Below are positions 18,779-46,340 of a stretch of 64,000 bases of DNA, piece after piece. Under the pieces are notes generated by a model, which was not told where the DNA came from, did no database searches, and saw only the letters and a program-made list of their open reading frames with translations. The first letter of the stretch is position 1; each line of letters opens with the position of its first letter. This DNA comes from Fistulifera solaris (Eukaryota): NCBI GenBank assembly GCA_030295235.1, contig AP026139.1:1-64000 (forward strand). The letters are read 5' to 3'. Both the position numbers and the translations under genes were made by a program.

Positions 18779-21700
18779 CTAGATGCACTCCGAACAACAT
18801 GTCTCTAATTCACAAACCACGGTGCAGTCGACAACTAGAGTGTCTAGCAAAAGTGAAGGATCAGCTGCAACAGCGCATATTTGTTCTGGGACGTTTCCTG
18901 TTAACTGGTTGTTGCCGAGTTGCACTTCTACCAATGTTGATATTTGGCCGAGCTGGGTAGGAATCGGTCCGGTGAGAGCGTTTTCATTAAGCAAAAGACT
19001 CTGGAGTACCGTAAGTTGACCCAGTTCCGCGGGTATTACTCCCGTTAAAGGAGCATTACGTCCCAGGTTCAAGTGCTTCAACTTTGTGAGTGATCCAAAC
19101 TCTAATGGAATAGTTCCAGAAAACAAACAAGCTCGGGCGTTGAACCGCTCTAGATTCGTCAGCAATCCGAGCTCAGGCGGCAGAGGGCCAAATAGCAATG
19201 TTGACTCCAACGCAATGTCTTTAAGGGTAAACATGGTGAAAAGCTCCAATGGAATCGCTCCGCTCAGTGCACTATTTCCAGATAAATGAAGTGTTTCTGA
19301 TTGCAAGAGGGCAAGGGGTGTTAGTCATCGTGTTTGAACAGTTTGTACCCCATGAATGCGCGTCGCAACCTACCTAACGACAAAGCTGTCGCTATTTCCA
19401 CCGGTATTGTTCCACTTATGTTGTTCCGTGACAACCGGAACTCGGTCAGATTGGGCGAAGTTTCCCAGCCAGTGGTCGGAAGGGAACCCGAGAACAGATT
19501 GTCGTCCAAAATTAAGACCTGGATATTTGGTAGACTGAGCAGTTCGGCAGGGAAAGGACCCGTCACACCCGTCCCATTGAGATTGAGCTCTTTCAGCGCT
19601 GTCAAAGAAGTATATTCAGTGCCTAATGTGCTGCCCAGAACGTTCCCCGCTAACGAGAGAATTTCTAGCTCCGTCAAAGCAGCCAGGGTCGGCAGCGGAC
19701 CCACAAGTCCATTCGATTCCAAATAGAGCTCACGCAGCGTCACTATTTCGCCGAGCTCTGCCGGTATCGGGCCGGTGAGAAAGTTGAGATTCAAATTTAA
19801 AACCTCCAATGCCTGTAACTTTGTCAAAACCGCTGACGGCACTGGACCAGTTAATTGGTTCGTATTCAGGTCAAGAACCCTCAATCCTGTAAGCGACCCA
19901 AGACCTTCGGGAAGAGAACCTGAAATCGCATTATCGAATAAGATTAGTTCTTGCAGGTTCGCCATATTCCCCACTTGTTCGGAGAGGGGCCCAAACAACG
20001 AGTTTGATGACAAGTCGAGAACTTCTAGGACACCGTCAGCTGCTCCGTCAAGTACAATCCCTGTGAATGTATTTCGAGCCAATTTCAGAGTTTTCAGCGT
20101 TGAGCTTGACAATAGCTCCGACGGAATTTGACCGAACAACAGATTTTCGCTTAGATCGAGTTCAACCAAGGACGGAATCGAAAAAAGTACAGTCGGTGGG
20201 GAACCTTCAAAGAAATTCAAATATGCACGAACTATCTCGAGACTGCCTAGTCCCCCGATTTCTTCTGGTATCGCAGTGAAACCATTTTCAAAGATATGCA
20301 GTTCCTTCAGACTGGTTAGCAATCCAATCTCGGTTGGAAGCGCTCCAGTAAATACATTACTGGCAAGATTAAGTGTGGCTACGTTAAGAAAACAAAGTGA
20401 GACGTGTTTTGTGCGTATTTAGCTAAAGAGCAAATGAAAGTTTCTTCTTACCCAATGCACCGAGGTTACCGAGACTGGTAGGGAGCTGCTGTGACAGCTC
20501 ATTTCCCTCTACCTCTAAAGTGACTAAATTCGTTAATCTGCCGAGTTCGGAGGGTAGTGTCCCTGTGTGAAAGTTCAAATTCGCCCTGAAGCCGATCAAA
20601 CTAGAAAGCCTGCCGATTTCTGTCGGCAACGTGCCATTGAAAAAGTTATTCGAGTAATCCATTACTTGCAAGAGTGTCAAACTGCTTATGCCAGATGGAA
20701 TCGTCCCGTATAGGTCATTACCGGAAACGTCAAGAATACCTATGTTTTGAAATAAGAAAATCGTGAGATATTTGCACATCAAAAAGTACAAAGACATGAA
20801 CGGACGTGGCCTTTTACACACCTAACGAATTCAGACCACGAATTTCAGAAGGTAGCTCCCCAAAGAGATCGTTTTCACTCAAACTAATTTGTATAACTTT
20901 GCCATCATCGTCACACATCACACCGTACCACGGTGTACATACAGGATCTGGACCGGTCCAACCATCCCGAACACGCCACGAACTCCCATTCGTGGCATAA
21001 AAGAGTGTATTCAAAGCGTAAATCGCTCGGATTTCTTCTTCGTCACCGGGGACGGCCAAGTCGGGAAATGACTCGGTCACTTTTTTATACGCCAGATTCT
21101 GGGCTGTGCCTTCAACATTTATTGATTCGTCATCGGTTAAAGCAAAGGCAAGGAACGCATCGATTGAGTCGAACGCCGGCAGGTGGTTGGCGCACCTATC
21201 AGAGTGCTGGGTGCCGGACTAATTGTAGGTGCAGCTTCAATCAACGTCGAAGGTTGTGTACTTTCCGCAGCTCCAGCCACTGGTGCAGGACTGACTGTAG
21301 GTCCAGTGGCAGCTTGCGTAGCAGGTTGCGAGCTCTCGCCTGTACCAGCGTCCGGAGCGGGGCTCGACGAAGATTCCCCTGTAGCGGGCTGCGAGCTTTC
21401 TCCAGTACCAGCTGCAGGTGCTGGGCTTACAAAAGGCGCGGCGGCAGCTGGCTGGGAGCTTTCTGCAGGACCTGCTGGGCTCTCGGTTGTTCCAAACAAA
21501 ACAGGAGAGCCTGAACCACCCGACCCAACTAGGGAAGGTGCATCAGTTCCCAACGAAGCTGCTGTTGGCAATCCTGTTTGAGAAGATGGCGATGTAGGTG
21601 ATCCCAGAGCGGGTGCGTCAGACCCAGTAGATGGCAATGTCGGCAATACTGTCTGAGAAGCAGGTGTCGGTACTATCGTCAGCGGTGATGAGGGCGTCGG

Positions 21701-22583: not shown

Positions 22584-24199
22584 CGGTATTGTCGTGTCTT
22601 TGGCTTCCAATGAGCCGATTTTGACAGAAGAAAAGCGCCCGGTCGATTAGCTGTCTAACTGAGATGGCTTTGCCATGGAGGTAACAGCAGATTTGGCTTT
22701 CCGAAGTCGTTTTATCAAAAGACCGATGAAGTCGAAAAATTTGGACCCGAAAATTGTGGCCCGAGGTCACAAAATCGGCCATCGCGGAAAAGGGTCTTCG
22801 AGAAGTCATTTTCAGAGTATACTGTATTGTACAGTCTTATTGATACTCAAACCTATCACTAAATTCCAACGGAAAAGACAACAGACAGCGAGAAGTCCCA
22901 ACGAGGACGGACCGTGACTCCTCTTCAGGACTGCAAACTGCAATTCTGGCATGAGTGCAATACGGAGTATGTTCTCATCCCCAGTCTTCCTTACAATGCG
23001 TTTGTCTGGCTGCTTTGATGAGCTATGGATGATGGATGTCTCTTTATCAGCATAAATACCTCGAACAGCTTCGCAATGCGCGATTCGAATCCTTACAGGG
23101 AAATCTTTGCGGATCATTGTCAGCGTGACTGTAGCGCAAGTGATGGGTCACATAGCCATGACTGGATTCCAGTCACGAGACAAATATGTTTGTTTGTAAG
23201 TCAAGTCTATGCAATTTCCAGTCAGTCCTTCTGAGCATTTTTAACCAAGCTCGAAGGTCGTACTTTACTAAATGTATGTCATGCTGTAATGAATTACCAC
23301 AATGAACTGGTGTATCGTGTATCTATGTACAATAGCGCTCTGCGTACGTGTGTGTATGTGGTTGTGCGCAACGTCAGTCCCAAGTGTCCGGGTTACGGTT
23401 TTGACGTTATCGTTCGTGTTCTTTCGTTGCAGTTGGCTGTTTACCTGGTACCAAGTAATCTTACAGAAAGTCTGTGTAAAATCCAGAAAATCTGAGACGG
23501 TGTGTTTAATCCTTCAGCAATTCTGTGTACGTTCCTAAACTCATGGACAACGCGTGAGCAAAAAGAAATTTTGTGAACGCTCCAGAAATTCTGCTAACGG
23601 CGTCTTTGTACATACAGCATTTCTGTTATATAATCAGAAATGCTGCAGTGTTTTGATCATATTATTGTCAGTGTGTATGTGCATGTCTGTGTGTAACGTT
23701 CGTCCCTGGTGTCTGGGTCACGAATCCGACGTTGTCACACGGGGACCGAGCGCCCCATGCCCTGTGTCCATGTGTGGGGTGTGGGTGTGGGAAGGGCGAG
23801 ATCGAAAAGGCTCTCGAGAGGCTCGCAATCGCAAGGTCTCTAGAGCGAGACGCCGAAGGCGACTAGCGGCTAGTACCGTAATGCATTTTGAAATACAATG
23901 GCGAATCTACATCGAAATTGCCTGTCTATAAGGCGTCCGCCACTGTGTATTATGGAATGAAATGTAGGCGACCTTTTCATCCGACTGGATCCTGGAGGAG
24001 TCACTCACGGTTCTGTCATGTGCCCGGGATGCCGCAATAATACTCCGTACGAGAGAAGCGGATTTTTTATTGCATCGACTTGCATCGCAGATCGCGCAGC
24101 TTGCATCTTTCGCATTCGCTCTTTCTTTCTATTTTAGACAAGCACGACTATTCCTTTTCATCTTTTCTTGGTAACTTCGTTATTCACAAGTTAGACGAA

Positions 24200-27100
24200 A
24201 TGTCAGACATTCAGGAAATAGCATCCTCTAGTAAGATGATTGCGTCGCTTATTACGGAACTCGACAAGCCAAACGGACTATACACGTGGCTGGTGCTTTA
24301 CGGTGAGACGAACTCCTTGACGCGTTATGTTGCGTTATCGAGAACGTTTTGTCAAGAAAAACGTCCTTTACCCAACTTAATGCCAAGTGTATTAGAGAAA
24401 TTGGTCACTACGCAAGAAAATTTAACCTCATTATTTGATTTATGGTGTTGTTTCTGGAATACCTACGAACGGATTCAAGATAATGAGCTGTGGTTGAATT
24501 CTGTCGAACGCCACCCATCGCTTATTCAATTTAATAACTCCATGCGACCTGGTTTGAGGTTTACTAGTGTTGCTTGGAAGATTGCCATCAAGATCCGTAG
24601 CAAACATCCGACACTGGATCCCTGGCTGTTGAGTTTGGCGGCGTTTTCGTTGATTTTGAGAGCCATGAAGAGTCATTCTGCGAGCTATGAACAGTGGAAT
24701 CGACTCTGCGATACACACTTTGAAAATTCTGTTGATGATTATCTAGTGGAGAAATTGTATGGAAGCAATTGTCGATGCTGGCAGGCTCCTCTCGATCCTC
24801 CGCAGGAATTCACCCCGGAAAGAATTACATCTTTCGTGGCAAAATTCATTGTAACACATATTTTTGCAGCAAAAGGAAGCCATGATAAAGGTGAGCCGTC
24901 TCTCGCCCACAATATCACCCAGTGGCTTGACAAGTATGAGAACAACACGGAGAACCTGAATCCCATGATACTCATGTCGGAATACATTAAATTTTTGAAA
25001 ACTCGCAAAGGTCTGAATCCTTTCGTCTTTCTTGCGAAACCCTCTGACGATCTTGTTCAAGAAACAACAACTGATTTTGTTGCAAGTGCGTCTCAAGAGC
25101 CTCCGAAAGAAATGCGGGCATCACAAGGAACCGATGTCAGAGATGGTTCGAAGGAAATAAATACGTCTACTTCGCCGCAACCGCGCGACGAGGAAGGTTG
25201 GGACAAGGACGCCAATGGCATTGCGTCAGATAAAGATTCCGTTGATGATGCTTTTATACAACACGAGAATGATGACGCGGATGAAGTGTCGACGACCTCA
25301 AAGCCCACACCGCAGAACGATGATCAAGTAGAAGGAGCTAGTCGACTGATAGCGATGTTAATCACCGAAGTCGACAAACCGAACGGCTTGTACACGTGGC
25401 TATTGCAGTTCGGCGAACAGTACAGTTTGACAGATTTTGTTGCGTTGTCTACTACATTTTGTAAAGAAAAGAGTCCTTTACAAGATAGCACACCAGTGCT
25501 GTTGAAATCGCTAGTCGAAACTCAGAAAAACCTCGATTCCCTGCATCATTTGTGGTGCTGTTTTTGGAACACTTGCTATCGAATCCAAGATGATCCCTTG
25601 TGGAATGAAGCCGTTGAGTCTCACCCAATGTTAACATACCTCGAAAAGACGTCATCGGCCGGGATGATGTTTGTAACAGTTGCTTGGAAGATTGCAGCTA
25701 AACTACGGCAGAAGGACTCGACTCTGGATCCTTGGATTTTGAGTTTGGCAGCAATTTCCCTCCTTCTAAAAGCGATGAACAGTCATCCCCTAAACTATCA
25801 AAAATGGGTAGAATTTTGCTCGGCGCGGTTTGGTGAGTCATATGATGCATATTTACTTGGCAAACTCTATCAAAGCGATAATCGTTGTCGGGAGTATCCT
25901 CTCGATCCTCCGTCCGGTTTTGCACCGGACCTCGTCTCGTCCCTGGTGAAGACCGTTATCACAACCCAAATTTACAACGATCATACGTCGGTAAGGCCAC
26001 TCGCGGAAACGATTAGGGAATGGCTTGAACATCGTGAGAACAGATGGGAAAATCTCGATCCCACCACATTGATGACTGAATACGTGAAGTTCATCAGGAA
26101 TGGTAAAGGACTCAACCCATTTGTCTTTCTTGCAAAATCTTCGGACATTTTTTTGTCGCAAAGACGAAAGTCTGGTCGTCAATTACTTCTCCCCGTAGCG
26201 CGAACAGGTCTAGAAGCATCAATTCTTAAAGAACATCAAACCGAACGTCGAGGAACGAATGCGTCACCTACTCGAAAGGAACCGGAAACTTCTGATGAGG
26301 CTACGACTAATGACGTTGCCCTCAATCACGAAGCTGATGATGACGTTTCTGTGCAGCAAAACGACGAAAATGAGAACACAAATGGTAGTATCGGCAAACA
26401 TCCCGCAAGTGACGCCGAAGACGAAGCTAATGAAGTAAAGAAGCGAAAGTTAAATCTAAATGCTTCGCGAAGTCAACGCTTAGCCACCGCAATGGCGCTG
26501 GTGGTAAAAGAACTCTCCAAAATGAATCAGGGTTTGCCAGACTCGGCCGCCCAGACCTACGTCTTGTCCGATTCCATGGAATTGAACGAATGGACTGTGT
26601 CTTTGCTGATTGTGGACCATGTTGCGCCGAGTAGCAGATTAGTTCGTTACTTGGACGAAGCGTCGCCAAGACAATGGACCAAAGAATTGATTCCAATACT
26701 CAATCGTGCGTTGCTGCGATTTTCACAGGAGAATTTGGTAGAAAAGGCCACTCGAACGGCACCTGTATCTGTATCAAAATCGGATGGAGTGGTGCAGATT
26801 CATGGAAGTGTTACAGACGATAAGATCATGAGCAAAGCTGTGATACTGCTCTATTATCACGCACTTGAAGCCATTTTGACATCGGAATCGGAACGACTGA
26901 AAGTAACATCACATCCACAAATTGTGATGTACTCTGTCTTTCACAAGGCTCTGTTGGCATGCTGTATGTGGTGTGTGACGAAAGCTATCGGTGCTACACA
27001 AAAACTGCGATCTTCCCCTTGTCTACAAGCATTGTCGATACAATCGACACTGCGAGTCTGTGACAGCAATCCCTACGACTTTCTCAAGGTTTCTGAATCC

Positions 27101-27921
27101 TTTTTGCGCGTACTATGCCTTGGAACTTCGAATCTCAAATTGGGATCACCGTTACCACAGAAATTGCCGCGTCTGTTGCACCGCGATCTCCAATCGATGG
27201 AAGTGACCATTCTGGATTCGTTGCTGTGGTCGACCTCCATCCTGAATGGCACGGCCGGTTCTTTGCCTGAGCAAATCGAAGATTTTATGGGCAAGTCGAA
27301 TGAGAATGTCACCCTCTGGCCTCCGGAGATACTAGCACCGACCTTGCGAGAGGAAGCATCCGAGTCTGGCAAGAATCTCACTTATCCTACACCCGATCAC
27401 GAGGATTTTGCCGAATACAGATGTGTGAATTTTTGATTAGATCCGTGGTAAAACTGTCCTTTTCTCGTTTTGAAGACATCTGCGGTTTGCTGAAAGTTCC
27501 CGTACAGTATCCTTTGGTGACACATGCTTGGGTGGCTTTCCGTCACTTGCTGCGACATCATGTAGAAATGCTGTTTGATCGACATGTGGATCAATGGATT
27601 TTATGTTGTCTTTACGGCGTGGCCAAGGTTTTGTCATTTCCGCTGACCTTTGCGGAAATCATTGAAGCTTACATCAAGTCGCGTGGTCCGGTAGTGGGAG
27701 ATGTGACTTGCCAACACATCTTGCGATATATTCGTATGGATAATACCAGTCACGATTTAACGACAGGTGATGTAATTGCGCTCTACAACCATGTTTGGGT
27801 CCCTAATATGAAAACATACTTGATGGAGAGTGCATCTCTCCGAGAGAGTGCCAAGAAAGTGCAAGAGTTGCTTCGTGGGAAAGAAGCCGCGACACCGGAT
27901 GAACCCATAAATGAGCAATAA
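24200..27921 (+). CDS. Retinoblastoma-related pocket protein with a tandemly duplicated N-terminal domain
   Basis: RB_A: LYYHALEAILTSESERL, FHKALLACC, PYDFLKVSESFLR, ILDSLLW. RB_B: LFDRHVDQWILCCLYGVAKV, FAEIIEAY, DVIALYNHVWVP. Frameshift at the T-run near 27432. Confidence 0.88.
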
Positions 27922-30928: not shown

Positions 30929-31236
30929 TGAATGAAAAATGAGCAAGTAAACAAATATACGACTCGTGACTGATTACCAGTTACGGAATCATAGAAAAAG
31001 GGCGCCTACATTTTCTGGCACAGTGACCGCTTCTAGTCACGAGAATCAATGACTGCCAAGCAAGAATAATGACCGAATGACACAAATGACCCTTCAAGAC
31101 ACCGAGGAAAAGAAAACCCAAGAAAGATTGATCATCGTGTTTTTTTTTCATTCGATTGAACATCATTCCTTTCATTCCTTTCTTTGTTGCTTTCCTCTCC
31201 CCTCTATTATCTCTCTTCTATTTTTTCGTAGACAGC

Positions 31237-34200
31237 ATGACCGAGGCGAATAATAACGCAAACTCAACTACAGCCGTCAATCCGCTGAAAACAGATGCCG
31301 ATCTCTTGTCACTCTTGAAACGATTGGATGGCATTCACAAATACAAAACCTTTCAACGATGGAAAGCACGATTCTTGGATCGTCTTGAATCCTTCTTGTA
31401 TGAAGCAGGCATGGGACCAGCGGATGAATCCTGCCAAGCGTTTTCGACTTTATTGCAGAAACAAATCCGGCGTGGGGAAGCAGTACAAACGCACGTCGCC
31501 CACGGCGAATTGAATGCCGAGAAAAAAGACAGTCAAGGCGGCTTTGGCGTTAAATGAAATGTGCACTCTATTAACGAGTACTGTACAAGAAACGGAACTG
31601 TTGATTCCTTCGAATACGAAAGAAGAGAAGCAACGAGGATACACAAAATTCCATTTAGGAGCTGTATTGATTCGACAGGGATTTCATCAGTATCAAGCGA
31701 TGCAAGCCATTGAGGCGGATTTGCAGCAACTGTCGCGTGATTTAGAACAGGTGGCCGACAAGCAGCAGCGAGAACTCTTTCATATGTATCAAACACAGGT
31801 ACAGCGATTTTGTGATGTCATGGCGGATTTGAATTTGTATGAAGTCATGAAGAAGTGTTTGCAATTTGCGCAAGCTCCTGAAGAAGAAGAAAGCAGTGAC
31901 GAAGAACCCGTTGTCATTCAAATTGTCATTCATACACACGATGGAAAGAAGTTGACGTTAACGCTGGATCAGACGGAGACGATTGGGAACATTAAGGAGA
32001 GTATCGTGGCGGCATGTGGCATTCCGGTCGAACGACAGGTACTGACCTTTCAAGATACTCTTCTGAACGATCCCGACGCTACTTTGGTCGGTTGCGGTAT
32101 TCCAGATCAGTCGGAACTGAAAGTCGAACCATTCCGTATACCCATTGCAGTCAAGACAATGGATGGAGTAATTTATTCCCTGCAAGTTGATCCGACGGAT
32201 TATTTATCGAGTGTTAAACAGCAGTTGGCGGAACGAACGGGCATTGCACCCAACAACCAAAACCTCACTTTGCAAGACACGCCACTGGATGACCTAAAGA
32301 CTATAGCAGAGAATGGTATTCCAGCGGAGAGTCAATTAGAAATGGAACCCAAGGTCTTGAACTTAAACGTCACGCTGCCCGGTGGGAAAATTGTGGTAGT
32401 ATCAGCGCTCCCTTCCGATACAGTAGAGGATCTGAAAGAGAAAATTGCGAATCAGACGGGGCTTGCGGCACCAAGACAAGTCATAAAGGTCGCGGAGCAG
32501 ACACTACCTGTAGACCAACCGCTTCGCGAATTGGGTTTGAATGATGGTTCGGATATTGTCGTCGACCTGTTTCAAATTCCGATTCAAGTCAAGACTATGG
32601 ACGGGAAGTCGATATCGTTGAAGATCGAACCTTCCAAATACTTAAGTGACGTTAAGCGACAATTGGAGGCGGATTCGGGTTTGCACGCCGCCAACATGCA
32701 ATTGAGTCGAGACTACGAGGATGGGAATACTGAAATACTGGACAACGATATGAAGACAGCGCAAGATTATGATATCCGGGCGAATACTATTTTGGATTTG
32801 GCACCCAAGAAAATGCCGATCCGGGTTCGACTTCCGGATGGAAAGGAAGTAGAAGTCGAAATCAGTCCCAGGGATACGTTAGGTGTTATCAAACAAGCGG
32901 TTGCTGACAAAAGTGGCTTAGCCCCTTCGCGACAAAAGTTAATGTATCAAGGCGAAGAAATACCGCTAAATGAAACGGCTCAAAAGATGGGTCTACGACC
33001 TGGGGATTTACTTCAAGTGGAATTCAATAAGGTGCCAATTACAGTGAACACGATGGATGGGCGACAAATTAAAGTCGATATTGATCTGGCAGACACCGCT
33101 GGTAATATCAAAAAGCACCTGGAAGTGGAGACAGGTCTTCCTGCAAATAACATTCAATTGTATTTGGATGGGAATGCACTAGATGACGATGAAAAGACCG
33201 CCAAAGACTACTGTGTTGAGGCTGGCAGTGAACTCGACTTGGAGCCTAAATCGATAGCCCTAACGGTTGAGTTACCCGATGGAAAAACAATTGCGCTGGA
33301 TGTTTCACCGCAGGAGACGACTAACAATTTGAAGGCAAAAATTCAGGCCAAATGTGGCTTGGCCCCGGAACGCCAAGTGGTTTGTCATGAAGGCAAAGAA
33401 TTGCCGCCAGATGGAATAAAAGTACGAGAGATGGGTATTCCAGCCGATGCGACGTTACAAGTGGGCTTACATAAAATCCCAATCAGTGTAAAGACTATGG
33501 ATGGACGCAAAATCCAAGTGGACGTTGAACCCGCGACGACTCTTGCTGACCTAAAGAAGCAAATGCAAGACGATGCAGGAATTGCAGCGGACAATATTGC
33601 ATTAAGCATGGACGGCAATCCTTTAGATAATGATGGCAAATCTCTCAACGATTATGGAATACAAGCTGGTAGTGAGTTGGATTTGGAGCCTAGATCGATT
33701 GCTGTGACAGTCGAGATGCCCGACGGTACGAAACATCCTATCACTATTTGCCCCAGCGATACAACAGGCAATTTGAAGCAAGCGATTGAGGACGCAACTG
33801 GGATTCAAGTTCCACGCCAAGTTGTATATTATCAAGGGAGCGAAATAAAACCTGACCAGACAGTTCGGTCCATTGGTGTTCCCGACGGTGCGACGCTGCA
33901 AGTGGAATTTTTCAAAATTCCCATTGTTGTCAATTGCGTTGATGGATCCCAAATGCATGTAAACATTGAACCAAGTGCTACATTAAGCGATATCAAAAAG
34001 GTCATTGAGCAAGAATCAGGAGTATCCGCAAACAATCAGAACTTGAGTATCGACGGCAGTCCACTGGAGGGCGACAATAGCAAAACAGCTGTCGATCATG
34101 GCATTCACGCAGGAAGTGAAATCGATATGGAACCCAACACAATACGATTAAAGGTCAAACTTCCGGACGAATCAACTATATCACTATCCGTCAGACCCGC

Positions 34201-35523
34201 TGATACTACCGAATCGATCAAAGATTTGATTCATAAAGAGACGGGTATCGCTCCCCCGCGGCAGTCCTTGCATCAAACGAACGGTCAACCACTTTGTGGA
34301 AATAAGACCATCAGAGAAATGAATCTCAAAGATGAATCGACAATTCAGGTCTTGCTCTCTAAAGTACCTGTGACAGTAAAAAGTGCCGATGGAAGTGAAA
34401 CTGAGCTCATGGTTGATCTACACGAGAATCTGCTTGTCATTAAAGAGCAAGTCGAAAGAGAACTTGGTTTGCCGGTGAGCAATCAGAATCTATTGATTAT
34501 AGATCGTATTCTCAAAGACAATAACAGGCCTGCCAAAGATCAAGGTGTCGTTTCTGGATCGATTCTTTACGTGGAACCGAAACTCATGACCATCACAGCT
34601 ATCTTACCAAACGGTACGCAACACGTGTTGCAAGTGCAGCCTAGCGACCTGGTCGATTCTGTATCGGATCAAATTGCGCGTGTCTCCGGTTTGGCAAATC
34701 ATCGACAAGTTCTGAAACAAGATTCCCGCACTTTGAATAAGGTCGAGACACTACGTGATGCGCGAGTCCTACCCGATTCTTCAGTCCACGTGAGTATCTA
34801 TACCATTCCCATCAGGGTGCAAACAGAAAACAACCAAAGCTACGATTTGAACGTCGAGCCAACGTCGATGATTAGTGAACTGAAGAAAACACTTGAACAC
34901 GAAACGGGCATTGACGAAAAGAAACAAATATTAATGTACAATGAAACAGAACTGAAAATGGGAACCATTAAAGCCGGTGGTCTCCTACCCAAATCGGTTG
35001 TGCACTTGAGTATTCGCAAGGATTCTATCATCTTTGTGGATGTGAAATGCGGTACCCTCTTGCCGTCGATCGCGATGAAGTGAGTGAACGAAAAATGTTG
35101 ACAGCCAATCAAGGCAATCGTCTCGACTTTCTTGAAGCGACGCAAGACAGCAAAAGTAAAGAGAATATGAAGAAAGCCATGCTGAGTTCCCCATCGCTCG
35201 GTGTAGCACCACAAGTCGTCGTTGTGTCTACCCAAGTAGATGACTACGAGTTGGAAGAAGCCGCCAAAGTCGCGAGTATGTGGGGCGTAAGTTTGAAGAA
35301 ACGTGAAAAGAACAAGAAAGGTGAAGAATTCATTTTTGTGGATCCGAAAACAGGTGCTTGTGGCGAATTGTCTCGCAAAAAGTACCTCGACATGGCCTTT
35401 ATTACATTGGAAACACTATCAAATGGCGAAGAAACTTTGGCTGAACGAGAGATGGATACTATGACTTACGACAAGTACGTGATGGACATTCGTCGCGTTT
35501 TTGACATCAAATCGGCGACTTAA
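31237..35523 (+). CDS. Large protein with 14 tandem divergent ubiquitin-like domains
   Basis: Repeated I.VKT.DG..I.L.V.P.DT...LK..I....G.....Q.L...G..L.D..T...GI..GS.L.L units. Frameshifts near 31524 and 35060 join the N- and C-terminal ORFs. Confidence 0.88.
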
Positions 35524-35607
35524 CGTCAAATACGATAAAAACAAGCTTATAAAAATAGTCACATCGAGAAACTTGGACTTTTTTAAATACTCTACTATTC
35601 GTAACCT

Positions 35608-36624
35608 TTATTCCTTGTTCGCCGTCGAGGCCGCCGAAGCTTGAGTCATTTCCACAATAAGCTTCTTGACATCTCCACGATCTTGTGCCGGACGGGGAAA
35701 CGGTACACGCACTTTGAATTGCTCCGGCAAAAAGGCAATGGCTTCTTCTCGGGTGACTTTGACAAACATCCCTAACGAATCGACGGAAGTAATTTCGGCA
35801 GCGGTAATGGTCGGTCCCTCTTTCATGCCGGGTATCGCGTTCTGTACAATGGCAATGGTGGCCGACTGATGATCATCATTCATGTGTTCGGCAATGTGCG
35901 GACCAAATGCCGAAATAGCATCGGGCTGTGCTTGCGCATATTCGTCGGCAGTGACCGTTCCGGCCCTGGCAAAGCCACCAACAAAACGCACATGCTCTAC
36001 CGACATTCGGAACCAATTGAAATCCCCAAAAGCCGTCCAGAAGGCTCCCGGATGCTTCTGATTGTAGAGTTGTTGAGCTTGTTCAATTTCTTCTTTCGAT
36101 TTAATCAATGTCGCTGTTCCCATGAGATTAACACGTCCATCGGCGGCACCTTTGAACTGCTTGCTGGCAACCGTCAAACTACAGTTGGGGTTCGCGAGAA
36201 TGTCTTGTGTATGCGAGGACATGCCCGAGAAACAAAAGAGCGGCCGCCCTTGCTCATCGACGGAAAAGCCTACTACGGAACCGCCGGGAAATTCGGGATG
36301 CGCTTTACTAAACGTACTCATCACCGCAAAGCCGTGACTGTTTTGCACCAACGTGCGAACATCCGTCGCAAAATCCAATTTGGGGGCATTTTGTTGATGT
36401 TGTTGATACTCCATTAACTGCTTTTGAAGTTCGGGTGATAATTGCGACATCGGATCGCCTCCGACATCATGACGGGGAGCGTTGTTGCGGAGGATCGAAG
36501 CAGAAGACACATGCAAAGTCGACTGTGCGAATTGTTGTGGATGATTGCGATTCGCAACGAAGGCGTGCGCAGTATTCACAGTCAGCAGTGACAGAACAAG
36601 CAAAGAGATCATGTTACAGTTCAT
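35608..36624 (-). CDS. HugZ-like / pyridoxamine 5'-phosphate oxidase-family split-barrel protein with a DUF2470-type C-terminus, plastid-targeted
   Basis: FPGGSVVGF, SGMSSHTQDILANPNCSLTV, GRVNLMG, FVGGFARAG, HMNDDH, VDSLG. Signal peptide ends AHA-F. Confidence 0.85.
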   Translation of the reverse strand: MNCNMISLLVLSLLTVNTAHAFVANRNHPQQFAQSTLHVSSASILRNNAPRHDVGGDPMSQLSPELQKQLMEYQQHQQNAPKLDFATDVRTLVQNSHGFAVMSTFSKAHPEFPGGSVVGFSVDEQGRPLFCFSGMSSHTQDILANPNCSLTVASKQFKGAADGRVNLMGTATLIKSKEEIEQAQQLYNQKHPGAFWTAFGDFNWFRMSVEHVRFVGGFARAGTVTADEYAQAQPDAISAFGPHIAEHMNDDHQSATIAIVQNAIPGMKEGPTITAAEITSVDSLGMFVKVTREEAIAFLPEQFKVRVPFPRPAQDRGDVKKLIVEMTQASAASTANKE

Positions 36625-37197
36625 TGAGACAAGATTAGAGGAAAAGGAATGTACCGGTAACTGGGTCCTGACAGTCAATAAAGATGAGAATGAAGAGAAT
36701 GAAGATGCGCCTTTTTCAATTATTTTGGCTCATTGACGTGGAATGAGAGTAGCGGAGTCCCGCCACCGAATTGGGTCCCGGATTAATGTCGCACACTTGC
36801 GTCATTCGAGGGAACGCCAAAACGACGAGCGACTCCTCCTGGGAATGATTCAAGAGAGAGAATAGTACAATAATTCTTATAGTAGCTCACGGAATATCTC
36901 TTTGTAACATGTGACTGCTCCTCTGGTTTTGGCGTTATTTCTCCCATTGCGTGTTTTGCGTGAAATCGAAAAGGATGGGTACCAGGTACCGTACCGGTAC
37001 AAACAAAACGCAGAGGGCATGTTTCATTGCGTTGCAATAAAACTGTAATTGACCTTTCCGAGTAACCTCATTGACCAGCTTTCATTAATCATCTTTTCTT
37101 CTTTGGCCTATCGCAAAGTCGGAGTGATTCGAACAGTTCAGTATCATTGCAGTGCATTCTATCGTCGCGTTGTCATCATATCAATCATCATTTCATC

Positions 37198-41437: not shown

Positions 41438-42535
41438 ATGTCATATCCTGCAACAAATGAAGACTATTTAAAGGCTCTTGAAGAAGCGTATCGACAAGGG
41501 GCGGCAGCGGCGGCGCAAATGGCATTGCAAGAACAACAGTCCATCAACAATAATAGAGGAGCATCATGTCCGGATTTTAGCGGGCAGCCGGTGGCTTTAA
41601 ACGGCAATCAGCATGCTGCACTACTACCGTTCTCTGTCCCTGATCCGCTCGTTCATCATGATGTAGCAAGCCAACCGCAACAACAGCAGCAAGCCGAGTT
41701 CATCATGCCCCCTCCGCCGCCCCCCTTCTTCGATGCTACAACACGACATTGTGCCCGCTTTTCCTGCACAGCATCGTAGCTTTTCTATGCCGGATATGAG
41801 TGTTTACGCGTCACAGAAACAAGAAGATATTAAGCGTCACAAGCGCTTAGCGAGAAACCGCGCTTCGGCGCGCATTCGTCGTTTACGAAAGAAACATTTA
41901 GTCGATGCATATGAGTCAGAGGTCAAGTCGTTAGGCAGTACATTACAGCGTTTGAAAGAACACGAGTGGGGAAATGGAGACGATCATCCAAATCTTTTAC
42001 AGTTGCTGAGCATGGAACGAGGACAAGACGACGTTGAAGCCTCACAAAGACAGGAAGTAGTGGCTTCTATTTTGTCACAGCAACTTCAAGTCGTTCAGCA
42101 GTTGCAAGAACTTATGCAAGAACAGTATGCGCTTTATGAGGTTGCAACAAGTGACACCATAGACTTCGAAGAATTGGCCTCGATTTTAGAACTCACGCCG
42201 AGTCAGCGGAATCAAATTCGTGACCAAGCTACAGGTTGGATGCAAGAATGGCAGGCACTGCAAACGGTTGAAGCCTCGTTAATCCGTATGCAAGAAAACG
42301 AGTGGCTATCAAAAACGGTGTGTCCGAGATGGCGGAGGAGCTATATGCGCTGTTTAATAAAAATCAGCTCACTAAATTCTTGATATGGACCGACATCAAT
42401 CGAGACGCTATCGATCTTGTGAACATAGTGAACACAAAGTCAAATATGAGCATCGAGCATGACGGACCTGTCTTTCAATTTGGTGTTGAGAATATCTGTG
42501 ACGACGGCTTTCATCAAAGCGAACTCAATTTTTAA
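41438..42535 (+). CDS. bZIP transcription factor (paralog 2)
   Basis: KRHKRLARNRASARIRRLRKKHLVDAYESEVKSL; collinear with paralog 1 through GPVFQFG. Frameshifts near 41723 and 42312. Confidence 0.9.
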
Positions 42536-44175: not shown

Positions 44176-44656
44176 CGGAAGAATGCTCCATCCATAAACG
44201 TGAGTTATGAGAAGTGCCACCGTCCTGCCATCTCAGGACGTTCTATGTGAATGAAATGGGGTGTTGTGCTGTGTCTGTTTCTGTGTTGAGTTGCAACTAT
44301 AAACAACGATACTACCATTATAGAATGAAGACAAGATTAGAAACGGCAAGCAGTACTACCAGTTACTGGTATTTGCATCCAAACGTTGTGCGAGACCGTG
44401 ACTGAATTAAGTCACGTTGTTGCGCGCGATCGAATGCGCGTGAGAACGTGAAAGTTGCTGACTCACAAAAACAGTCACAAAAAGTGACACAGTTTTTTTT
44501 TTCAAACATCACAATCGTTCTTTCTCTCACCATCACACAATACAAGTACAAAATACAAGTGTTTGTAATCGTCGTCTGGATGATATCATTCTACCAGCTC
44601 AACCCCTTTCAAATACTAACACCCGAGTCGTCTTCCTCTACCTTACTACTTTGTAC

Positions 44657-46340
44657 ATGATCGTTCGATTGTTCGTATTGTCAACATTGCTTTGCTTTAC
44701 AATAACTACCAGCATGTCGACTTCTTCCAAGAGAGCGTCCTGTCAAGCCGTCTATTATTGGTTTCGCAACGATCTACGTTTACACGATCATCCCGCACTC
44801 ACAGCAGCCATTCAACGGGCATCTCAGTTGCAAGTTCCTTTCATTCCAGTCTATTGCTTTGATCCGCGTTACTTTGGATCGGAAGCTTATTCGGAATACG
44901 GAAGTTGGAAGTGCAGTCCTCGCCGTGCGCAATTCGTGTTGGAATCGGTCAGCGATTTACAACAGCGTCTCATAAATGCGGGCTCGAACTTGGTTGTGGT
45001 AACAAGACAAACTCCGGAAGACTACTTTGCGGCAGACACGACGAGCCACTATTCCAAAGCGCTTCTCTATTATCAGGAAGAAGTGTGTCGAGAGGAAAGG
45101 ATGATTGCCAAGAAAGTGGCACAGCACTTTGATCGGCAAAATGTACAAGCTATTTGGGGTTCCACCTTGTACGAATTATCGGAATTGCCGTATTATGATG
45201 CTCCCGAAACCATGCCAGATACCTTTACTCCTTTTCGCAATAAGGTCGAAAAGAAATGTGTCATTCCCAAGCCATTACACGCACCCACGAAGCTACCACC
45301 GTTTCCAGCCGATGTGAAAACGCAACCCGCATCGAAACTGACCTTGGTGGACATTGGATACCAAGGATTGTTGGGAAAATTACCACACGATCCACGCGGT
45401 GTCATGGAATTTTTCGGAGGTGAATCGGCCGGTTTGGCGCGTGTCAAAGAGTACATTTGGACCAAAGATTTGTTGCGTCATTATTTTGATACCCGGAATG
45501 GGATGCTGGGTGCCGACTATTCGTCCAAGTTTGCACCTTGGCTGGCCCACGGATGCATTTCACCCCGTTTTGTCGCACAGCAGTGTCAACGCTATGAACA
45601 AGAACGCGTCGAAAACAAGTCGACGTATTGGTTGATCTTTGAATTACTGTGGCGGGACTTTTTCAAATTCTTTGCCTGGAAACATGGGGATACCTTGTTT
45701 CCAGCCCGGTGGTACGATTCAAAGCACGAAGCGTTGGAAAACATTTGAGAAATCCTTGCAAGCGTGGAAAGATGGAAAGACCGGGTATCCCTTGGTCGAT
45801 GCGAATATGCGCGAATTGAACGCCACGGGGTTCATGAGCAATCGAGGCCGTCAGAATGTTTGCTCCTTTCTGTGCTTGGAATTGATGCAAGATTGGCGTT
45901 TGGGAGCTGATTACTTTGAGAGCACGTTATTGGACTACGACGTGTATTCCAACTGGGGTAACTGGTGCTCGGGAGCTGGAATGACTGGTGGACGTATCAA
46001 TCGCTTTAATATTGTGAAACAATCCAAGGACTACGATCAGCACGGAGAATATGTCAAACACTGGTTGCCTGAGTTAAAAGACATTCCAGCGAATCTTGTG
46101 CATGAACCGTGGAAAATGACACAGTTTCAACAAACGGAATACAATTGTCGTCTAGGTGTCGACTATCCTCATCCCATTGTGAAACCTTTTGATGCCACAC
46201 CTAAGCAGGGACCAGACGGTACAGGAGGACGTGCGAACGGACAAAAGGGTAAGCTGGATACTCACAATCCGAACCGCAGTCGAGGACAGCGAAGGGATAT
46301 GAAAAGCCTTAACAAAGGATCCTATAGAGTCGAAGGATAA
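44657..46340 (+). CDS. Cryptochrome DASH (photolyase/cryptochrome family)
   Basis: WFRNDLRLHD, TRNGMLGADYSSKFAPWLAHGCISPR, STYWLIFELLWRDFF, GFMSNRGRQNV, FESTLLDYDVYSNWGNW. Frameshift near 45700. Confidence 0.93.

Follow-up and report, generated by a model that had tools for sequence, protein, structure and literature searches.

The gene at 31237..35523 and its two frame breaks

The stretch of DNA analysed here (hereafter the window: 64,000 nucleotides of Fistulifera solaris, positions 1 to 64,000 of the forward strand of contig AP026139.1, GenBank assembly GCA_030295235.1) carries on its plus strand, at 31237..35523, a gene of 1428 codons plus stop, two one-base frame breaks discounted. It encodes a helical N-terminal domain (N-domain, or head), an array of 14 ubiquitin-like (UBL) units of two alternating types, A and B, and a C-terminal domain of two modules (C-domain, or tail). 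The gene corresponds to the GenBank protein GAX23339.1 (P0060; Fistulifera solaris, 1428 residues), whose record name is 'ubiquitin C': the three-frame translation of the window is identical to P0060 at 1179 of 1180 residues and, in addition, at 153/153 residues over positions 1276-1428 of P0060. No signal-peptide-like or membrane-spanning hydrophobic stretch was found in the protein, whose isoelectric point (pI) is 4.9. A second copy, GAX28236.1, is 88% identical and represents the other homeolog or allele; a form of about 90% identity was also present among the contigs described below.

The longest open reading frame (ORF) of the region, 31514..35083 (+), encodes a 1189-residue protein (P0001), and full-length relatives start about 95 residues upstream of P0001 and extend about 150 residues beyond its stop. 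The gene is spread over three frame pieces: from 31237 in frame 1, 31514..35083 in frame 2, and up to 35523 in frame 1 again; the outer pieces correspond to ORF 31156..31557 (start codon at 31237) and ORF 35047..35523, both in another frame than P0001. The first frame break (frame 1 to frame 2) lies at 31522..31527 (+), where the window has AAAAAA compared to five A in the relatives and in independent contigs; the second (frame 2 to frame 1) lies at 35060..35061 (+), where the window has TT compared to TTT in the relatives. Contigs from four public runs (X1-X4) were aligned to the region as a check. The extra A was absent from all the covering depth (33.2/33.2 in X1, 60.2/60.2 in X2, 18.3/18.3 in X3; X4 had no coverage), and the contigs lacking it include some that are identical to the window elsewhere. 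An additional T behind 35059 was present at 35.7 of a depth of 85.6 in X1, 66.3/98.9 in X2, 13.8/13.8 in X3 and 10/10 in X4, and the GenBank protein GAX23339.1 reads through this second break. Since independent contigs and the GenBank protein are free of the one-base differences, the gene is regarded as intact, and the frame breaks are put down to errors of homopolymer length in this assembly, or to rare variants in it. Introns were ruled out as the origin of the frame changes: the relatives are continuous across both sites, the contigs show one-base differences only, and no joint within the gene was found in any aligned contig of the four runs. A third one-base homopolymer difference, at 31140, in a T-run upstream of the start codon, was seen against an otherwise identical X1 contig, and adds to the impression of unreliable homopolymer lengths in the assembly.

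An array of 14 ubiquitin-fold units of two alternating types

Pfam PF00240 (ubiquitin) matched 14 stretches of ORF 31514..35083 (E 3.4e-162); the other Pfam families found on P0001 (E up to 0.01) were all of the ubiquitin fold and covered the same stretches. Among solved structures, the best sequence matches of P0001 were linear polyubiquitins (8q7r_U, E 2.5e-110). A profile built from one pair of units, taken by coordinates, splits residues 133-1169 of P0001 (window 31910..35020) into 14 back-to-back units of 73-79 residues with connectors of about 2 residues, in agreement with the 14 UBL domains and minimal linkers that a preliminary description, made from the DNA sequence alone, had placed at 31916..35020. 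All units lie on the plus strand. The seven type A units are unit 1, at 31910..32131 (the cap next to the N-domain, 97% identical to the homeolog), unit 3 (32351..32569), unit 5 (32807..33025), unit 7 (33248..33469), unit 9 (33692..33910), unit 11 (34136..34357) and unit 13 (34580..34798). The seven type B units are unit 2 (32132..32350), unit 4 (32570..32806, 79 residues, with a 5-residue insert), unit 6 (33026..33247), unit 8 (33470..33691), unit 10 (33911..34135), unit 12 (34358..34579) and unit 14 (34799..35020), a divergent type B that forms the cap next to the C-domain. All boundaries come from the profile, joined by motifs in units 2, 3, 5, 6 and 9 and by alignment to ubiquitin in units 7 (residue by residue) and 8.

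The units are about 30% identical to ubiquitin, and those modelled for the relative P0034, a complete 6-unit member, superpose on ubiquitin with a root-mean-square deviation of 0.9-1.0 Å over 73-75 residues (Z about 15). The P0034 model is confident at the domain level (predicted local distance difference test score, pLDDT, 81.9; predicted template modelling score, pTM, 0.38), and in it strand 5 of each unit and strand 1 of the next are separated by 2 residues at 5/5 junctions. A wide structure search (VIA) with an 829-residue model listed only ubiquitin folds, and the structural matches of the array model include the di-UBL of OASL (7sbi_B) and ISG15 and FAT10 chains. The array has an acidic and uniform character (pI 4.8).

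Within the window protein, mean identity is 31% between A units, 36% between B units and 24% between A and B, and among the 1716 balanced partitions of the units into seven and seven, the odd/even split alone reaches the observed contrast. The same division was obtained in a tree inferred by maximum likelihood for 108 units of 8 proteins, where the odd/even label follows one side of a single branch (ultrafast bootstrap, UFBoot, 91; Shimodaira-Hasegawa-like approximate likelihood ratio test, SH-aLRT, 92) and needs 1 change; a single change also sufficed in 90% of 200 bootstrap trees, compared to an average of about 36 changes for shuffled labels. The proposal of seven A/B pairs, together with the two clades of repeats that the preliminary description had expected from a phylogeny, is thus borne out by both the partitions and the tree.

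The sequence motifs that had been proposed for the two types stood in part. In the window units they are specific to their class and absent from the other: RQV in 5/7 A and 0/7 B units, TMDG in 4/7 B and 0/7 A units, N.[QN]L in 5/7 B and 0/7 A units. LPDG had been assigned to most odd units, which was generous, as the exact motif occurs in 2/7 A units (PDG in 3/7) and in 0/7 B units; likewise, LDLEP followed by K or R, described as the end of the even units, closes 2/7 B units, and EP closes 5/7. Statistics on interior units (157 A and 157 B units from 32 proteins) gave the residues conserved by type: PDG, PSDT and RQV in A units; NQ.L, DYGI and LDLEP in B units. Unit length is 73 residues in 110/157 interior A units and 74 residues in 112/157 interior B units, and a proline is near-fixed at the end of the B unit, at the position of ubiquitin L71 (152/157).

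Absence of processing signals and replacement of the ubiquitin recognition patch

No unit in the array has Gly-Gly (GG) at its end; the pair occurs only inside units 3 and 14. Relative to ubiquitin, the flexible tail of each unit is three residues shorter and is followed directly by the first strand of the next unit. Pairwise identity among the 14 units is 16-52%, and they are not near-identical as the repeats of a polyubiquitin precursor are. No tandem repeat was detected at the DNA level by Tandem Repeats Finder; therefore the array is old at the nucleotide level. Nor is there a C-terminal GG that could be exposed, as a C-domain of 167 residues follows the array and the protein ends in ...KSAT. 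Judged by its sequence, the chain is not a cleavable polyubiquitin, as the preliminary description had recognised.

The surface by which ubiquitin is read by its receptors (L8, I44 and V70) is replaced in both unit types. In the interior A units, Pro occupies the L8 position 151 times, Lys the I44 position 102 times and Glu or Asp the V70 position 119 times; among the interior B units, the V70 position is Glu in 138, next to the proline at L71. A bulky residue (M, W, Y or L) is kept at the L8 position in 119/157 interior B units, and their I44 position is Phe in 60 and Ser in 55. A second part of the earlier proposal, that the chain mimics polyubiquitin, therefore fares badly, and its standing as an explanation is weighed in the Discussion.

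The domains flanking the array

The N-domain, at 31237..31909 (+), comprises about 210 residues; in models of relatives with high pLDDT it folds into about ten bundled helices, with a conserved acidic linker rich in Ser (EEEESSDEE) at its end. The C-domain consists of two modules. Module 1, at 35021..35202 (+; end approximate), was delimited by a family profile match and opens with the first FVD.K.G motif, and the second frame break runs through it; module 2, at 35320..35520 (+; start approximate), carries the second FVD.K.G motif and falls in the part that is identical to P0060 at 153/153 residues (1276-1428). Each module is predicted to span about 60 residues and to contain a strand hairpin, a short helix, two strands and a long helix. 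The two are homologous (hhalign probability 99%, E 5e-18), and a basic loop (KKREKNKK) of low model confidence separates them. The helical N-domain and the C-domain with two FVD.K.G repeats of the preliminary description were both recovered in this way; the division of the gene over three frame pieces had not been pointed out there.

Searches with the two domains returned few leads: no Pfam family was found for the N- or the C-domain; a permissive Pfam scan of the proteins with N- and C-domain or with C-domain only gave nothing above the cut-offs save UVR on P0167; the ESM Atlas search with both domains gave no usable match; Foldseek of the model of N- and C-domain against the PDB gave nothing at E up to 0.001; the VIA wide search with the same kind of model returned generic helical bundles only (Z up to 10.4), the C-domain being barely probed; and the profile of alignment A2 against PDB sequences reached a best E of 0.057. 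A docking prediction of head and tail, run without alignments and with the partner fold uncertain, scored 0.00 and is given no weight in either direction.

Head and tail also occur apart from the array. They are joined directly, with zero units, in the single ORFs P0102, P0124 and P0132; the head occurs with other tails in P0040 and P0041; and the transcript P0167 combines UVR motifs, the head and one tail module. The tail ends eight oxidoreductases of the medium-chain dehydrogenase/reductase (MDR) type (ADH_N/ADH_zinc_N) and one oxygenase of the 2-oxoglutarate-Fe(II) (2OG-Fe(II)) type (P0058, P0059, P0095, P0101, P0106, P0108, P0118, P0120, P0116). As it is found on these enzymes too, the twin-module C-domain behaves as a portable C-terminal module. 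One further protein, P0087, was modelled (pLDDT 85.2, pTM 0.68) and initially taken as a zero-unit orthologue; this was withdrawn, since the related transcript P0162, 79-90% identical in the flanks, has two units there, and P0087 is probably a gene-model artefact. P0057 (349 residues) holds a degraded head (ELNAEKKTV...) and pieces of tail module 1 in an unrelated frame, with no units between, and looks like a decayed or mis-called gene copy.

Family members and unit numbers

When the whole protein, its C-part and its N-part were used as queries, 40, 43 and 64 proteins were returned, respectively, and an exhaustive search with the C-part returned 71 cluster representatives. The sources, where named, were all raphid pennate diatoms (Fistulifera solaris, Nitzschia sp. 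Nitz4, Nitzschia inconspicua, Mayamaea pseudoterrestris, Seminavis robusta, Amphora coffeiformis and Pseudo-nitzschia multiseries), so among matches with a named source the family has so far been seen only in this group. The window gene shares the N-domain, the alternating A/B units and the twin-module C-domain with 38 relatives that have at least 6 units, and the Pfam lists of full-length relatives contain ubiquitin-fold families only.

A census of layouts covered 44 proteins with both N- and C-domain, some of which share one 90% cluster, so that they do not represent 44 independent lineages. Unit numbers among them were 0 (five proteins), 1 (one), 6 (two), 8 (four), 10 (six), 12 (nine), 14 (eleven), 16 (two) and 18, 22, 24 and 26 (one each); the number is even in 43/44. 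Alternation is strict (ABAB) in 36/38 proteins with at least 6 units, and the two exceptions deviate only at a cap unit. The repeat counts of homologs, which had been named beforehand as a check, thus vary from 6 to 26 units among the relatives, as would fit a ruler or a scaffold. Three further proteins (P0037, P0038, P0039) have the N-domain and 4-9 units with no clear A/B pattern and no C-domain.

Relatives are recorded in GenBank/JGI as 'Polyubiquitin (Fragment)', 'ubiquitin family protein' or 'ubiquitin-like protein Nedd8'. No paper on the family was found by literature searches that included accession numbers and did not cover supplementary tables. A preprint on duplicated ubiquitin-like sequences of a hornwort (10.1101/2024.06.24.596764) is unrelated to the family. 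The suggestion of an undescribed system accordingly holds as far as these searches reach, but the gene itself was already annotated, as 'ubiquitin C' in GenBank.

Evolution of the array

Across species, the first units of the 8 proteins cluster with one another in the unit tree (2 label changes) and the last units lie near each other (3 label changes); the interior units mostly cluster by lineage, as in the Seminavis protein, where units 3/5/7 and units 2/4/6/8 fall together. From this difference between caps and interior it follows that the interior turns over by local duplication and loss and that the caps persist. The similarities of A units to each other and those of the neighbouring B units are correlated (mean r about 0.37), and the register of duplication fits A-B better than B-A in 9/19 proteins. 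Of the expansion from a di-UBL unit that the preliminary description had inferred, the duplication of neighbouring units is supported by the clustering of the interior by lineage; the count of 9/19 does not distinguish A-B from B-A as the duplicating pair.

Conservation differs along the protein. Identity to the homeolog is 95% for the N-domain, 95% for the C-domain and 78-97% for the units; to P0003, 82%, 77% and 56-83%, respectively; and to P0008, 58%, 56% and 27-59%. Measured by these identities, head and tail are the slowest-evolving parts and the interior units evolve faster.

Neighbouring features of the window

Other genes of the window show similar splits. A retinoblastoma-like gene, at 24080..27921 (+), extends over two overlapping ORFs in different frames (RB_A 24080..27436, RB_B 27421..27921), which reflects either a short intron or a one-base assembly difference like the two of the UBL gene. 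A photolyase/cryptochrome gene, at 44651..46340 (+), is likewise divided between DNA_photolyase (44651..45748) and FAD_binding_7 (45639..46340), in another frame. Downstream of the UBL gene, at 35608..36678 (-), lies a gene encoding a CREG-like/PNPOx beta-barrel and DUF2470 with a hydrophobic N-terminal leader; between the stop of the UBL gene and the end of this minus-strand neighbour, one X1 contig skips 81 bases (35526..35608, ends CA..CT), which may be an indel between genome copies or a feature of an untranslated region. A bZIP transcription factor ORF (41733..42383, +) and a leucine-rich-repeat ORF (19321..20322, -) are eukaryotic genes of ordinary kinds, in keeping with a nuclear contig of a diatom.

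Discussion

The database names are the natural starting point for interpreting the protein. 'Ubiquitin C', 'Polyubiquitin (Fragment)' and 'ubiquitin-like protein Nedd8', together with the Pfam ubiquitin match, would make it an ordinary UBC-type polyubiquitin precursor that is cut into monomers. At the level of sequence this is already refuted, since its units are 16-52% identical, 0/14 end in GG, and non-ubiquitin flanks of about 210 and 167 residues surround them; we regard it as hardly credible. An uncleavable chain that imitates polyubiquitin, to be read by the proteasome, by CDC48/p97 adaptors or by proteins with UBA or UIM domains as a decoy, degradation signal or platform, would account for the linear polyubiquitins as best solved-structure matches (8q7r_U, E 2.5e-110), for units about 30% identical to ubiquitin and for the absence of sites for deubiquitinases (DUBs). 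However, the L8/I44/V70 patch to which such readers bind has been replaced (A units carry P, K and E/D at these positions, and B units carry E at V70 and P at L71), the shortened tail alters the spacing of the units compared to M1-linked chains, and conserved head and tail domains and up to 26 units are not expected of a signal; with the patch gone, this role seems quite improbable.

The reading that we favour, tentatively, is that of a semi-rigid spacer or ruler that is not processed, separates two binding modules and grows by duplication of unit pairs. It is suggested by the 2-residue joints with conserved prolines, by the fixed length and variable number of the units, and by the conserved and independent ends. 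The gene would yield a single intracellular protein, 1428 residues long, which undergoes neither cleavage nor conjugation; binding to other components would fall to the conserved helical head and the conserved tail; the 14 ubiquitin-fold units, tightly connected, would form a probably semi-rigid rod; this rod may set the distance, or give a mechanical link, between head and tail; and it would lengthen or shorten over evolution as neighbouring interior units are gained or lost, with the first and last units as fixed caps. Several observations weigh against it. The placement of one unit relative to the next was not predicted with confidence in the model (pTM 0.38), and rigidity is argued only from the length of the linkers and the conserved prolines. 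Neither two unit types nor type-specific residues are needed in a plain spacer, and these could be binding sites and not packing surfaces. Nor is the rule of even numbers without exceptions: P0157 is scored with 15 units, including one A-A neighbour; in its relatives P0023, P0024 and P0064, 14 units are scored in a space between N- and C-domain that fits about 15; P0092 has one scored unit in a span that would fit 3.4; and a paralogous class of about 585 residues consists of the N-domain and five units (ABABA) and lacks the C-domain. The probable artefact P0087 belongs with these points, as a zero-unit case that falls away.

If the type-specific residues are indeed binding sites, the protein would be a periodic multivalent scaffold, in which each A-B pair binds, the array running along a filament or lattice, as nebulin does along actin, or gathering copies of a partner, and head and tail serving as anchor or cap. 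Such a role would explain the conservation of these residues over 157 A and 157 B interior units of 32 proteins, the strict alternation in 36 of the 38 proteins with at least 6 units, the acidic and uniform array (pI 4.8), and the bulky hydrophobic residue at the L8 position (119/157) and frequent Phe at the I44 position (60/157) of the B units. It fits less well with interior units that evolve faster than head and tail, with a four-fold variation of unit number between species, and with head and tail that exist joined in the absence of units, and we consider it unlikely, though it is the main alternative. Ubiquitin pulled from its N- to its C-terminus is mechanically very stable in single-molecule work, and a bolder, doubtful possibility is a titin-like ruler or tension-bearing tether of ubiquitin folds that would link two cellular structures in raphid, mostly surface-living diatoms; a distance or extensibility particular to each species would in that case depend on how many A-B pairs (3 to 13) the array holds.

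Known tandem arrangements of the fold differ from this protein in several respects. UBB/UBC precursors and M1-linked chains share with it the head-to-tail ubiquitin folds, those of the precursors in one reading frame, and provide its best sequence and structure matches; unlike them, the diatom protein has units of two diverged types, no GG, a unit tail three residues shorter, a replaced L8/I44/V70 patch and large non-ubiquitin domains at both ends. ISG15, FAT10 and the C-terminus of OASL likewise place unlike ubiquitin folds in tandem with a short linker, but they have one pair, compared to 3 to 13 internal pairs in the diatom arrays. ISG15 and FAT10 are conjugated and have an exposed GG at their end; the diatom protein shows no sign of conjugation. 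In USP7 and USP47, five UBLs, partly arranged as di-UBL units, are attached to the protease domain that they regulate. These are again several uncleaved UBLs in a row within one protein, but Pfam detects no catalytic domain on P0001, and the diatom family reaches 26 units. Titin Ig/Fn3 arrays and spectrin repeats offer a functional analogy, with many copies of a small stable fold, short linkers, distinct ends and variable copy number; their fold is different, and a mechanical or ruler role of the diatom protein would be by analogy only.

The ubiquitin fold itself and internal uncleaved UBLs are known already. What is new, as far as our literature searches reach, is a conserved family with 6 to 26 units of two alternating types between two undescribed domains, and the evidence that it has evolved as a length-variable rod. 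The fold is known to serve as a signal, as a single adaptor domain or in pairs, and this family would represent a different, architectural use of it. With it, three uncharacterised diatom modules are gained: the head, the tail and the A-B pair. The labels 'ubiquitin C' and 'polyubiquitin' carried by its members are wrong, which matters for counts of ubiquitin genes and for the choice of expression references in diatoms.

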